Of a stretch of 13,954 nt of DNA, positions 4,980-7,941 are shown in pieces; the stretch's first letter is position 1, and each line of letters opens with the position of its first letter. The DNA lies in the IMG/VR virus record IMGVR_UViG_3300031867_005023. The stretch is one strand, 5' to 3'. The notes under the pieces are model-generated. The model was given only the letters and a program-made list of their open reading frames with translations, had not been told where the DNA came from and did not search any database. This DNA comes from a virus. The position numbers and the translations under genes are program-made.

Positions 4980-5717
4980 ATGTTTAACAAAAAAATAAGA
5001 TTAATTGAATTGTTTGGTGGTGTTGGTTGTCAGGCATTAGCTCTAAGAGATTTAGCTATAGCAAATGGTTTGAAACCAGAAAATGTGTTTGAGCATTATC
5101 GTCTTGTTGAATTCGACAAATATCCAGTTAAATCATACAATGCAGTTCATGAAACAAATTTTGTTCCGATTGACATAACTGAAATCAAAGGTGAAGATCT
5201 TGGCATTGTAGATAAAGATAAATATATTTATATTTGCACATATTCATTCCCCTGTCAGGATTTATCGGTCGCTGGAAAGCAAGCCGGAATGGATAAAGGA
5301 TCTGGAACTAGAAGTGGTTTGCTTTGGGAAGTAGAGCGTTTATTGAATGAAACAAATGAATTACCAGATATTCTTCTTATGGAGAATGTTACTCAGGTTC
5401 ATGGGAAAAAGAATTTGGATAATTTCAATAAATGGATTGAGTTTTTAGAGTCCAAAGGTTATCACAATTATTGGCAAGATCTGGAAGCATCTCAGTATTG
5501 TATTCCGCAGCATAGAAATCGTACATTCATGGTTAGTTCATTAGAAGACATAGATTATGTTTTTCCTAGAACAATTGAATTGAAAAAAGTGATGCGGGAT
5601 ATGTTGGATGAAACTGTTGATGAAAAATATTATATTAATAATGAAAAAGCACAAACTCTCATCGAAAAACTAATTGAAGACGGTAAGCTCGATGAAGAAA
5701 GCGTGTTGGCCAGTTGA
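4980..5717 (+). CDS. DNA (cytosine-5)-methyltransferase N-terminal half: motifs I to VIII plus the start of the variable region. It terminates abruptly.
   Basis: Motif I is LFGGVGC (FxGxGG). Motif IV is FPCQDLS (the PCQ catalytic Cys). Motif VI is ENV. Motif VIII is QHRNRTF (QxRxR). The stretch DEKYYINNEKAQTLIEK resembles the conserved start of the TRD (DEKYYLSEK...). The ORF ends at TGA 5715-5717. Confidence 0.85.
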   Translation: MFNKKIRLIELFGGVGCQALALRDLAIANGLKPENVFEHYRLVEFDKYPVKSYNAVHETNFVPIDITEIKGEDLGIVDKDKYIYICTYSFPCQDLSVAGKQAGMDKGSGTRSGLLWEVERLLNETNELPDILLMENVTQVHGKKNLDNFNKWIEFLESKGYHNYWQDLEASQYCIPQHRNRTFMVSSLEDIDYVFPRTIELKKVMRDMLDETVDEKYYINNEKAQTLIEKLIEDGKLDEESVLAS

Positions 5718-7659
5718 TACGGCATATGTTAATTATAGAAAATTTGAATGCTTTTCCAACATCGCAAGAACTATAATGGGCAGATGTTGGAAAGGATTTG
5801 GCACAAGTAATCAAACACAAAATGGCGTTGTTGAGAGATATGAGCAATAGTATTAATAATGTAATTATACTTGGTCGTGTATTGCCAATGAGTTCGAACA
5901 AAATACATCAAAATCAAGAATTATATTGATTGATGGAATTATTGGAACAATAAAGATGACTCATTATAAAGATCCTCCGAAAGTGTTAGTATATGAAAAA
6001 ATCAATAGATGAAATTGGATATATTGAAAAAGGTAGCGGTAAGCATCAAAGTAATATAGTTTACTCAGTGGGGGGGTATGTCCGTGTATCGCTGCTGGAT
6101 GTGGAGTAAAATTCTGGATTTATGTCATTGAAAAGAAAGCACAGAAACAAAGTGATTAACGTTGGATTTATAAATACTGGAACAGGCAAAGCACATCAGT
6201 CCAACACGGTATATTCTTCGTTTGGCATATCACCATGCTTATGTTCATATGCTAATAGGTATGGCGGTATACAAACAAATATTCTGGTGAAAGAAATTGA
6301 AAAAGCAGATAACAGTAATACTTAAAAACATGGGAAGTTCTGATAAAAAACGTATTCCAGATTATAAAACAGTTAATGTCGCAACAACACTATTGAGTCG
6401 TGATTATAAGGGATTGGGTAATTTTGCTAGTAATGGAGTAATTGAAATTGATATCAAAAAATAGTATTTATTTAGGCAATATTTATAAAAGCAAGGATGG
6501 ATATGCTGGAGCCGTTTTTGCAATAAATGCTCCTTGCCCTACAATTAAAGCCAATAGTGGCGGTAATAGTCAACCAATGTTTATAACCAGAAAGAAAAAT
6601 GTTATTGCTAGTAGTGTGAAAAATAATGATGAAATAGTTTGGTTGGGAAATATTTATGGTGAATTTAGTACTGGTTATGCCGGAACTGTTTTTGGGGTGA
6701 ATGGAGTATGTCAGACAATAAAGGCGAATAGTGGTGGTAATACTCAACCTAATATAGTGGTAAGATATGCTGATAGATCAAATCATTTGTGCGAGTAGAG
6801 GAAGGAACCCAGATAATCCGAGTGATAGAACAGCTGGTAACTATGTGGAGCAGCGTTTAGAATTGGGAGAGAAAAACAAATGTTCGCATACTATCACTTC
6901 TGTCACTAAAGATAATTGGATATTAGAGATTTATGCTAAAAGTAATTCAGATAGGAAATTATATAAAAACAAAGAATAGAGATAATCCACAGAGAGGTAG
7001 AATTTATTCCAGTTCTGGACTATCTCCTTCAATATATTCATATCAAGGCGGTGGATTACAACCACTACTTATTGAGAGGGAAACAGATGAAAAGACTATT
7101 GTCTACTAAATGTCTTGTTCCGAAAAGAACAGATTATGGCAAAGCCATTAGAAAAGACTATGAAGCACATCGTGTATATGAATATAGAAGAAACATGGTT
7201 CAACTAGAACCAAGAACAGACAATATAATAAATACATTAACTACGTTATTAAAGGATAATTATATTTTGGAAATATATGATAGAACATAAACCAATATGT
7301 ATAGGCGGTTTCGGTGAGATTAATTTTGGAAAACAGTATAGAGAGGGCAACAGAGTATATGATAGCAGAGTAGTAGCCACTGCAATAAAAGCAAGTCCAG
7401 TGGGTAGCCTTGGTGGACAAACAAATTTATATTTGGTGATTGAGAAATGCTACAGTTAAACGATTTTGATATTATTAAAAATAATAAATATATTGGCACA
7501 AAGTATTATGAGTTTTATTGTAACCATGGATATATTCCAGTTGTTTTTACTCCGTATTCGCATACAGATGCTACAAATATTGGTTCTACATTATGTACTG
7601 AATGTGGAGCACCAGGACATGCTTCCAATATGCTAGTCATAATAAAACAAACAGAATAA
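5674..7659 (+). other. Array of at least ten degenerate C5-MTase TRD-like units in shifting reading frames, interrupted by stops. These are pseudo- or silent cassettes lying between the intact N- and C-halves.
   Basis: Reading across the region I see the following paralogous peptide units. The bracketed f-number is the reading frame, taken as start coordinate mod 3.

- 5760-5850 (f1): ARTIMGRCWKGFGTSNQTQNGVVE.
- 5993-6107 (f2): GSGKHQSNIVYSVGG, then a G7 tract. An eighth G would restore CPCIAAGCGVKFWIYVIEKK.
- 6122-6325 (f2): GTGKAHQSNTVYSSFGISPCLCSYANRYGGIQTNILVKEIEK.
- 6330-6464 (f0): ATTLLSRDYKGLGNFASNGVIEIDIKK.
- 6442-6798 (f1): AVFAINAPCPTIKANSGGNSQ and TVFGVNGVCQTIKANSGGNTQ.
- 6767-6979 (f2): CSHTITSVTKDNWILEIY...RKLYKNKE.
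- 7051-7290 (f1): HRVYEYRRN...NTLTTLLKDNYILEIY.
- 7277-7459 (f2): NRVYDSRVVATAIKASPVGSLGGQTNLYLV.
- 7447-7659 (f1): TNIGSTLCTECGAPGHASNMLVI. This last unit is in frame with the C-half and separated from it by a single TAA.

All of them resemble the conserved RIYSTRGIAITLSAYGGG...LV segment that precedes motif IX in M.HhaI-type enzymes. Confidence 0.6.
6472..6753 (+). repeat. Imperfect tandem direct duplication (about 108 and 111 bp) that encodes two adjacent TRD-like units inside ORF 6442..6798.
   Basis: Copy A at 6472..6579 (ttaggcaatatttataaaagcaaggatgg...attaaagccaatagtggcggtaatagtcaaccaatg) against copy B at 6643..6753 (ttgggaaatatttatggtgaatttagtactgg...ataaaggcgaatagtggtggtaatactcaacctaat). 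I estimate about 70-80% identity by eye, including one codon indel. Confidence 0.6.
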
Positions 7660-7683
7660 ATGGTAATTAAAGAAAGGAATAGA

Positions 7684-7941
7684 ATGGAAACAAAATATAT
7701 ATATAGGATTAGAAAACTTACTCCTTGCGAATGTTGGAGATTGATGGATATTGCAGGGAAAGATGATGAAAATTTCAAGAAAGCACAATCTGTGAATTCA
7801 AACACTCAGTTGTATAAAGAAGCTGGAAATGGTATAGTAAGATCAGTTTTAATGGGTATTTTTTCACAACTTGACATTAACGGCATTAAGAAGTGGAATG
7901 ATATGACAGACGAAGAAATTGAAAACATGATTTTTACATAA
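7684..7941 (+). CDS. DNA (cytosine-5)-methyltransferase C-terminal part: motif IX (RKLTPCECWRLMDI) and motif X (QLYKEAGNGIVRSVLMGI). It has its own SD and ATG.
   Basis: IRKLTPCECWRLMDIAG matches the RxLTPRECARLQGFPD motif IX. QLYKEAGNGIVRSVL matches the QxGNSVxVxV motif X. The SD is AAAGAAAGGAAT, 4 nt before the ATG at 7684. An alternative upstream ATG at 7660 follows the TAA that ends the last TRD-like unit in the same frame. Confidence 0.8.
   Translation: METKYIYRIRKLTPCECWRLMDIAGKDDENFKKAQSVNSNTQLYKEAGNGIVRSVLMGIFSQLDINGIKKWNDMTDEEIENMIFT

Follow-up and report, generated by a model that had tools for sequence, protein, structure and literature searches.

Multispecific C5-cytosine methyltransferases (C5-MTases) of Bacillus phages carry two to four target-recognition domains (TRDs), compared to 13 in the locus described here, and the coding sequence for the beta polypeptide of M.EcoHK31I (~61 amino acids, aa) lies within the alpha gene in an alternative frame. 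M.AquI and M.EcoHK31I occur naturally as C5-MTases of two polypeptides and are thus precedents for assembly in trans: in M.AquI, motifs I-VIII and IX-X are on the alpha and beta polypeptides of adjacent genes, which are active upon assembly in trans, and in M.EcoHK31I, the alpha polypeptide is joined by a small beta polypeptide with motif IX only (PMC3404938). The size and organisation of the TRDs in the multispecific Bacillus phage enzymes are cited as work of the Trautner group (PMC12707154, ref. 31). Here, we describe a C5-MTase locus in 13,954 nucleotides (nt) of viral DNA, IMG/VR record IMGVR_UViG_3300031867_005023; this whole stretch is referred to as the window. The source of the locus is a large rumen phage, and its multi-target C5-MTase gene is in pieces: between two open reading frames (ORFs) for the halves of the catalytic core lies a train of short, overlapping ORFs that encode TRDs, each under purifying selection in its own frame and nearly all with start signals of their own. 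As relatives share this layout and it is under selection, the enzyme is probably put together from separate parts that can be exchanged. The features of the locus are as follows:

4980-5717, forward strand: N-half (alpha), C5-MTase large domain, 245 aa, motifs I-VIII plus a helical linker; strong Shine-Dalgarno (SD) sequence upstream
5692-5850, forward strand: unit A, 52 aa from ATG 5692, ARTIMxRxxKGxG...NGVVE type; in the +1 frame, with a 26-nt overlap with the N-half stop
5840-6012, forward strand: unit B, HQNQ...YKDPPK type, in pieces 5840-5929 and 5905-6012
5993-6159, forward strand: unit C, GKHQSNIVYSVGG...CIAAGCGVK type, frame broken at the G7 tract
6070-6076, forward strand: G7 homopolymer, the sole G/C run of at least 6 in the 13.9-kb window, candidate slippage switch
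6122-6325, forward strand: unit D, 67 aa, GKAHQSNTVYS...RYGG type; ratio of nonsynonymous to synonymous substitutions (dN/dS, or omega) 0.19
6297-6464, forward strand: unit E, 55 aa from TTG 6297, ATTLLSRDYKG...NGVIE type
6442-6798, forward strand: units F1 and F2, 118 aa from TTG 6442, two GNIY..YAG..CPTIKANSGGN TRDs fused in frame
6767-6979, forward strand: unit G, 70 aa, ASRGRNPxNPSDR...QRLE...KDNWILEIY type
6933-7109, forward strand: unit H, 58 aa, NPQRGRIYSSSG...GGG type
7087-7290, forward strand: unit I, 67 aa, PKRTDYGKAIRK...TLLKDNYILEIY type, with SD GAGAGGGAA (-6.3 kcal/mol)
7277-7459, forward strand: unit J, 60 aa, GKQYREGNRVYDSR type, homologue of a TRD of Bacillus phages H2, rho11s and SPbeta
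7447-7659, forward strand: unit L (TRD-like), 70 aa, DFDIIKNN...CTECGAPGHASN type
7660-7941, forward strand: C-half (beta), motifs IX and X only, 93 aa (ATG 7660) or 85 aa (ATG 7684)

The initial annotation of this DNA held that both catalytic halves are intact, and this is confirmed by their motifs, by Pfam family PF00145 and by alignment with M.HhaI. The N-half motifs, read from the translation, are FGGVG (I), FPCQDLS (IV), ENV (VI) and QHRNR (VIII); the Pfam match covers profile positions 2-212 of 324 (E = 1.8e-40), and the N-half aligns with residues 12-210 of M.HhaI and is alignable with M.MpeI, too. The C-half contains motif IX, RKLTPCECWRLM, and motif X, GNG (within AGNGIV), and just misses the Pfam cut-off of 22 bits (21.2 bits, E = 2e-4, profile positions 272-322). 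Its own SD, likewise predicted, is AAAGGAA upstream of the internal ATG 7684. As in M.AquI, motifs I-VIII and IX-X are thus located in separate ORFs, each with an SD and an ATG. In the window, both halves are free of TRDs: the N-half reaches its stop before the TRD of unit A, and the C-half begins after TAA 7657-7659, which, as had also been pointed out, is all that separates it from unit L in the same frame.

The stop-to-stop segments between positions 5692 and 7659 comprise 12 ORF units with 13 TRDs, distributed over the three forward frames and labelled A, B, C, D, E, F1-F2, G, H, I, J and L along the array, of which F1-F2 is a single ORF. Every unit is terminated by a stop, all three stop codons are in use and the frame differs across every junction, which excludes an alternative genetic code. 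The whole locus amounts to 14 separate ORFs in three frames; it shares with the SPbeta-group enzymes the tandem TRDs between motifs VIII and IX and differs from them in not being a single polypeptide. The at least ten paralogous, stop-ended TRD-like units in three frames that were originally reported therefore stand, with the reservation that their paralogy is evident at the protein level only. The description of each unit as a stop-delimited piece of a mosaic fits the layout and requires correction for internal frameshifts in units B and C and for the F1-F2 fusion, which is larger because two TRDs share one ORF. In a search for introns or RNA elements, no Rfam family reached its gathering score; tandem or simple repeats of note are absent from the window array, internal promoters and terminators in the locus are at background level only, and megablast of the locus against phage genomes yielded no match.

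For comparison, the DNA neighbouring N-half homologues was taken from ENA, JGI, Logan, IMG/VR and GTDB; L-numbers denote the relatives' loci. The closest annotated relatives are the MTases of Dulem virus 39 and of Streptococcus Javan prophages. The continuous enzyme of Dulem virus 39 contains one in-frame TRD with 63% identity to unit G and another with 47% identity to unit J. Over 38 aa, unit J also shows 50% identity to a TRD found in the multispecific MTases of Bacillus phages H2, rho11s and SPbeta, and unit G matches the TRD-bearing beta ORF of the Javan prophages. Because of this homology to TRDs of continuous enzymes, the window units are, by all sequence indications, genuine TRDs. The target of unit J might be GGCC, which the matched Bacillus phage enzymes share, although this is our guess. 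Pfam searches with ten single units (nine from the window and one from L109) and a PDB sequence search with units G and H gave no match, so that the identity of the units rests on the above homology. An AlphaFold2 model of a chimeric N-half, unit G and C-half chain, built with no alignment, was unusable (predicted local distance difference test score, pLDDT, 33).

Each unit is under purifying selection in its own frame. Analysed unit by unit among the window, L088 and L007, and between L003 and L009, nonsynonymous differences per site (pN) are 0.12-0.26 (0.36 in the most divergent pairing) and synonymous ones (pS) 0.44-0.83, giving omega values of ~0.07-0.28, with synonymous sites saturated between the compared relatives; for instance, dN/dS of unit A is 0.21 against L088. 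The catalytic halves have omega values of 0.06-0.09 (0.08-0.09 for the N-half); for the C-half, pN is 0.13 and dN/dS against L007 is 0.06, the synonymous sites against L088 being too saturated for the calculation.

The units also bear start signals. An in-frame ATG is found upstream of the first conserved beta-strand (median distance of four codons) in 62 of the 70 units from nine genomes, compared to 17.9 expected (binomial p of about 1e-28, not corrected for relatedness; the statistics across units are inflated by common ancestry). Five of the eight exceptions are units E and F1 of the window, L109 and L088, which have a Leu codon at this position, called as a TTG start in the window (relatives have an ATG where unit E of the window has TTG); no start was identified for the other three (L009 G, L009 I and L005 G). 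At nearly all junctions in four genomes, the unit ATG lies 5-53 nt upstream of the stop of the preceding unit. The mean energy of the SD duplex is -4.2 kcal/mol at unit starts versus -2.2 kcal/mol at 1970 other ATGs of the same loci (p = 7e-7), examples being GAGAGGGAAACAG-ATG at 7087 and AAGGAGCCAGAAA-ATG in L088. Furthermore, Lys follows the start Met in 29% of the units versus 9% after internal Met (p = 1e-5).

The overlaps between units are constrained in the downstream frame: across relatives, identity is 59% in that frame versus 37% in the tail of the upstream unit. For instance, where units G and H overlap, conservation of the H head exceeds that of the G tail, and the long version of this tail (KSNSDRKLYKNKE) is found only in genomes in which H comes next, where it co-encodes the conserved H head MLKVIQIGNYIKTKN. 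Of the 27 database matches to unit G, 26 are ORFs of 55-79 aa that stand alone (the remaining one has 121 aa), with a Met 2-6 residues ahead of QIICASRGRNP in nearly all of them; a unit G profile matched 1879 representative proteins. Taken as a whole, these features favour an independent start of translation at every minigene, which is probably coupled to the preceding termination.

Most unit-to-unit junctions (46/51) are in the +1 frame, namely, 10/12 in the window, 13/16 in L109, 10/10 in L003 and 13/13 in L088. This predominance may be attributed to the way in which starts appear to be embedded in the tail of the preceding unit. A +1 ATG requires NAT-GNN in the upstream frame, that is, Asn, Asp, His or Tyr followed by Gly, Ala, Val, Asp or Glu, which would be easily accommodated in hydrophilic tails (...EIY-D.., ..RY-A.., ..LD-E..). 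A +2 ATG would require NNA-TGN, that is, Cys, Trp or a stop, and the observed +2 junctions fit: two involve A-TGA overlaps, and the window junction from J to L involves AAA-TGC.

The split is characteristic of the family. Homologues of the N-half number in the thousands, and the closest ones (69-86% identity) nearly all have 244-245 aa, some of them on contigs of up to 202 kb. The two halves are in different ORFs in 103 of the 108 distinct loci that hold both, and form a continuous ORF in the other five; an uninterrupted multi-TRD relative, for which a search had been proposed, is represented by the Dulem virus 39 enzyme. All eight distinct rumen-clade relatives in the 108-locus tally have the array anatomy, and the order N-half, train of overlapping short TRD ORFs, C-half is seen in L003, L005, L007, L009, L010, L088, L089 and L109. 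The clade of the window comes from rumen and gut metagenomes (N-half identity of 72-100%), has 3-17 short TRD ORFs per array with a short C-half ORF last, and includes phage-like contigs of 130-200 kb with a DnaE-type polymerase; by binning of metagenome-assembled genomes alone, the hosts of the relatives are Lachnospiraceae and other Clostridia. Junction positions, frames and start codons are conserved across lineages at 70-85% N-half identity. The array sequence is identical base for base across samples in L002/L003/L004/L008 and in L005/L006, with no variation at the consensus level between samples of these near-identical strains, and the window array equals that of L001, an independent assembly of one run. 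Assembly error is thus excluded by identical arrays from different samples and assemblers, with Logan, JGI, MEGAHIT and SPAdes contigs in agreement.

Among the C-half matches listed (120 of 175), all homologues have 62-149 aa and PF00145 is found in most; many contigs carry a bare C-half of 85-92 aa, at ~71-89% identity, and a class of 127-149 aa is common. The C-half ORF includes a TRD of its own in L003, L009 and L089, and the N-half ORF includes one in L005 and L010. In L109, the 143-aa C-half frame also includes a TRD, but the ATG is out of frame. Among cultured Streptococcus prophages, phage Javan129 (L169, MK448675) encodes at 3001-4231 a 248-aa N-half and, after a gap of ~100 nt, a 128-aa ORF with a TRD and motifs IX-X, a pair annotated as two different methylase genes; by its layout, this is an M.AquI-like split in an isolate genome.

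Several relatives contain additional elements. In L109 (4584-6401; also in L107 and L021), the N-half ORF is 605 aa long and includes, exactly at the catalytic Cys of motif IV (SFP|CFTGD...VHN|CQDLS), an intein of 360 aa recognised by Pfam Intein_splicing (9.6e-13) and Hint, with LAGLIDADG-like motifs seen by eye and none detected by Pfam; an intein in this position argues that the N-half is expressed and selected. L010, a 132-kb viral contig, has an in-frame TAG and one extra codon right after the catalytic PCQ (6277-6288, FPCQ*HDLS), which may be a scar of intein loss or denote an inactivated N-half. In L005/L006, an unrelated ORF of 141-144 aa without a Pfam match (12366-12800) is located inside the array between units J and K, implying that independent cistrons are tolerated there. 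The same two loci encode an IS605-type TnpB (OrfB_IS605 and Cas12f1-like TNB domain; 15232-16578) ~1.7 kb downstream of the C-half.

Lesions in the window array were called against L109, which is 90% identical to the window. Unit B has a 1-nt deletion near 5929 (its L109 counterpart is intact, with 63 aa), and unit C is 1 nt short at the G7 tract. In addition, four whole units of L109 are absent from the window, with indels of 136, 147, 193 and 153 nt. At least the 193-nt indel falls exactly at a unit start (...gattgagaa|ATG), the 147-nt indel joins in frame F1 and F2, which in L109 are separated by a further unit, and the 153-nt indel takes away the TRD that is attached to the C-half in L109. 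The frame of unit C would be restored by G8 or G5; the tract is G7 in the L001 assembly of the same run as well. Unit C is intact in L109 and L007, in which the tract is interrupted; L088 has the break at the same G7, and in L005 the unit is disrupted close to a G6 run. Across ~112 kb of rumen-clade loci, seven of the eight G/C runs of at least 6 are inside arrays, which make up 22% of the sequence, and six of the seven, by reading of frame maps, are at or beside frame breaks within units: unit C of the window and of L088, units B, C and L of L005, and the TRD beside the C-half of L007, where a G7 run lies between the TRD head and a TRD tail fused to the C-half. The seventh run (G8 in L089) is within an intact TRD. 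In position, these poly-G runs bear the signature of contingency tracts, and unit C of the window is a candidate for a unit switched off by the slippage state of its G7.

More distant gut-phage relatives (~55-60 kb; N-half identity of 59-66%) have, right where the N-half linker ends, a hypervariable tract of the type (AGAGC)n or (GACA)n (L011-L087 and L095-L167, at about 6700-6780 of the loci, e.g., 6697-6736 in L013 and 6687-6730 in L030), mostly with 3-15 copies and in one case with 19. Among 77 distinct gut loci, the N-half frame continues into TRD X in 25, into TRD E in the +1 frame in 16 and into neither in 36, and the frame state largely follows the tract length modulo 3. A separate beta ORF with 2-6 in-frame TRDs and motifs IX-X comes next. 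A length-variable, frame-shifting tract, the defining feature of phase variation by simple sequence repeats (SSRs), is thus clearly present in this clade, where it resembles a slippage switch with three states by which a phage C5-MTase selects its TRD.

Yet another device resembles the frameshift site of prfB. At the N-half stop, AAGGAG(G)-nnn-CTT-TAA/TGA is found in L003 (9805-9825), L009 (6718-6738), L090 (5211-5231) and L093 (6718-6738), and L094 has T-TTT-TAA (about 3376-3391), a slippery UUU with a stop, preceded by a weak AGAAG only. In L003, L009 and L094, the +1 frame continues into a TRD-like stretch without its own ATG before the core, and in L093, TRD-like sequence follows the N-half stop in frame 0. 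The context of the N-half stop in the window, GAA AGC GTG TTG GCC AGT TGA T, contains neither an SD nor a slippery codon and is not of the prfB type. A slippery motif common to the junctions was sought and not found.

We propose, with a probability of roughly 0.5 and on sequence evidence, that the gene of a multispecific C5-MTase has been broken up into translationally coupled minigenes of one operon, the products of which come together in trans, a step further than in M.AquI. Under this scenario, the catalytic large domain with motifs I-VIII would be produced from one ORF and the small polypeptide with motifs IX-X from the last one, and each TRD would be the product of its own minigene of about 52-70 aa. 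The start codon and an SD-like purine stretch would be written into the hydrophilic tail of the preceding minigene, so that a ribosome finishing one cistron would re-initiate a few bases upstream on the next (translational coupling). All pieces would thus come from one transcript as separate polypeptides and assemble non-covalently on a single catalytic core, each TRD peptide conferring one methylation specificity, and the several specificities would protect the phage genome against many host restriction systems. TRDs would be gained and lost as whole units, and some would be toggled by poly-G slippage. Beyond the observed architecture, its conservation, the selection on each unit and the start signals, we infer separate translation, assembly in trans, enzymatic activity and poly-G switching. 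In its strongest form, that of a three-component C5-MTase consisting of a two-polypeptide core and a pool of about a dozen free, interchangeable, poly-G-toggled TRD peptides of 52-70 aa, the proposal is tentative, at somewhat short of even odds.

Several observations weigh against the proposed scenario. To our knowledge, no C5-MTase with a free TRD subunit is known. An AlphaFold2 model of unit G alone (28 sequences) reached a pLDDT of 61, and its Foldseek matches were all at chance level; given the low pLDDT and the lack of a fold match, an autonomous fold of this unit is unsupported. The SDs of the units are weaker than those of ordinary gene starts (mean of -6.5 kcal/mol, n = 57), and their purine richness could partly be a by-product of Glu-rich TRD tails. 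L109, L007, L003 and L009 lack an ATG specific to unit A, and because a prfB-like cassette precedes unit A in L003, L009, L090 and L093, the family probably relies on recoding instead of re-initiation at one junction or more. Purifying selection by itself would also be expected of occasionally used cassettes. Finally, with units B and C broken and no TRD on either half, the window copy could be less active than its relatives.

As judged from the comparative data, the locus is neither a result of random decay nor a set of silent recombination cassettes. If the middle part were a pseudogene remnant between halves left intact by chance or owing to its recent origin, the frameshifts in units B and C, the four missing L109 units, the stop right after PCQ in L010 and the several broken units in L088 and L005 would be readily understood. 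However, the units remain open in their own frames, at the low omega values given above, despite saturated synonymous sites, the junctions are conserved in position, frame and start across lineages, and almost the entire family is split. Decay, which had been doubted from the outset, fails in view of the selection on the units and the conserved junctions; it is largely refuted by the comparative data and highly improbable. As one of two readings, the initial annotation considered silent cassettes, one of which would be placed in frame between the halves by recombination or gene conversion, switching the specificity. The modular units and the whole-unit indels between the window and L109 are in line with such shuffling, and donor cassettes would be maintained by selection as well. 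By contrast, the supposed paralogy of the units does not extend to nucleotides, the longest inter-unit repeat in the window being 28 nt at 75% identity; meaningful inverted repeats are lacking, no recombinase gene is evident beside the locus, and a single TRD in frame between both halves occurs in none of the eight tallied rumen-clade loci, nor in L109. The startless cassettes, homology blocks and population variation of pilE/pilS, vlsE and hsdS shufflons have no counterpart here. In the absence of inter-unit nucleotide homology, and with start signals present and arrays identical across samples and assemblers, the cassette model fails and has to be considered very unlikely. Nor do the units appear silent, given that almost every one has its own ATG and SD-like signal and that the overlaps are constrained in the downstream frame. 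Slippage, which was invoked as one means of installing cassettes, may act in a different guise, at the G7 of unit C, at array G runs beside frame breaks and in the (AGAGC)n/(GACA)n tracts of the gut phages.

The two remaining explanations are less remote, if still unlikely. The original suggestion of a two-subunit enzyme of the M.AquI type is correct in that the halves are separate gene products and incomplete for the window because neither half carries a TRD. In an extended version, the enzyme would be M.AquI-like, and the free TRDs would act otherwise, for example as sequence-specific DNA binders that cover restriction sites or as regulators of the enzyme, or would be spare parts that come into play only once a poly-G or other frameshift has fused them to one of the halves. 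The TRDs attached to the C-half ORF in L003, L009 and L089 (and to the C-half frame of L109, with its ATG out of frame) or to the N-half ORF in L005 and L010, the L007 tract parting a TRD head from its C-half-fused tail, and the common C-half class of 127-149 aa among the matches listed are all consistent with this possibility. However, both halves of the window are intact even though neither has a TRD, bare C-halves are common among the matches listed, selection is equally strong on all units and on the attached ones, and we know of no precedent for TRD peptides acting alone, which makes this version doubtful. Comparably doubtful is recoding, whereby a +1 shift or termination and resumption at the junctions would extend the N-half by one or more TRDs, the embedded ATGs being secondary. 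This would account for the prevalence of +1 junctions, for the prfB-like sites and the slippery T-TTT-TAA, with the next unit lacking an ATG in L003, L009 and L094, and for the gut relatives, in which a TRD in frame with the N-half evidently matters. Outside the first junction of one subclade, however, the codons before the stops are not slippery and no well-spaced SD is present, and the first junction of the window (GCC AGT TGA T) has neither. Unit heads are located ahead of the preceding stop and show constraint in the downstream frame, so that ribosomes shifting at this stop would miss them; after a series of a dozen shifts, the amount of full-length product would be negligible; and the foreign ORF inside the L005 array does not conform to such a mode of expression.

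If coupled minigenes indeed supply TRDs that assemble in trans, the TRD of a C5-MTase can be a free subunit, which would change the textbook picture of monomeric or two-piece enzymes and extend to C5-MTases an HsdS-like specificity-subunit principle, not described for this class. It would also explain how large phages of gut and rumen Firmicutes could gain protection against a dozen restriction systems with less than 3 kb of DNA, and would offer a naturally occurring scaffold into which modules could be plugged to program cytosine methylation. There are known examples of phage C5-MTases with several specificities, of split C5-MTases and of MTases with SSR-based phase variation; the free TRD would be new. 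In the literature searched, we found no description of split or SSR-bearing phage C5-MTases, of a C5-MTase with individually translated TRD minigenes, of slippage tracts or a prfB-like site in phage C5-MTase genes, or of phase variation of a phage C5-MTase. The family displays three devices for recoding or switching on one gene, namely, coupled overlapping minigenes, a prfB-like +1 site, and slippage tracts with repeats of 4-5 nt or poly-G. For annotation, it is relevant that gene callers and Pfam label the minigenes hypothetical or miss them, so that the locus is easily dismissed as a pseudogene.

The genes around the MTase deserve a brief description. Directly upstream, the window encodes a macro-domain protein (2567-2974), a protein with WGR and PARP catalytic domains (2965-4215) and one with HD and ExoX-C domains (4215-4952); the macro and PARP pair recurs in L005, and the HD and ExoX-C gene in L002 and L007. 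The macro and PARP genes may constitute a phage ADP-ribosylation writer/eraser module. Downstream, an 805-aa protein (7968-10385) contains a major vault protein shoulder domain (PF11978, 1.7e-12) and a weak Vault repeat match, which is unusual for a phage-like contig. It is followed by an RNA ligase (10464-11426), a T4 Rnl1-like ligase (11600-12775) and a polynucleotide kinase-like protein combining an AAA_33/KTI12 kinase with an HD phosphatase (12772-13689). This RNA-repair-like cluster (10464-13689) suggests counter-defence against host systems that cleave tRNA.

Compared with described systems, the locus resembles the orphan C5-MTases of Bacillus phages SPR, phi3T, rho11s, H2 and SPbeta, which likewise have tandem TRDs between motifs VIII and IX and presumably serve to evade several host restriction systems. 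In those enzymes, however, all TRDs are on one polypeptide, whereas here they are in separate overlapping ORFs with their own starts and the core is in two ORFs. M.AquI has motifs I-VIII and IX-X on separate polypeptides, as in the window, but its variable region is shared by the two subunits and confers a single specificity, whereas the TRDs of the window are extra cistrons. In M.EcoHK31I, the C5-MTase is completed by a small separate polypeptide that contributes part of the small domain, but this polypeptide bears motif IX rather than a TRD, and there is no array. The Type I HsdM/HsdS enzymes (PMC3510504) parallel the proposed scheme in combining catalytic subunits with a detachable specificity subunit encoded by coupled overlapping cistrons; they belong to the unrelated N6-adenine class and have one S subunit with two TRDs rather than a train of single ones. 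The phase-variable Type III mod and Type I hsdS genes (PMC5909438, PMC7383803) change frame by repeat slippage, as the tracts of the gut relatives appear to do, but these are bacterial adenine MTases switched on or off, whereas the repeat in the gut-clade phage C5-MTases picks one of two TRDs or none; in the window, the G7 tract is the only candidate of this kind, and it has the same length in two assemblies of one run. Among the closest annotated relatives, the Streptococcus Javan prophage MTases (47% N-half identity) also have an N-half ORF apart from the ORF with the TRD and motifs IX-X, but are simple two-piece enzymes with one TRD. The Dulem virus 39 MTase (PP511791, 527 aa), with 62% N-half identity and five in-frame TRDs, including homologues of units G and J, differs from the locus of the window in being one continuous ORF.

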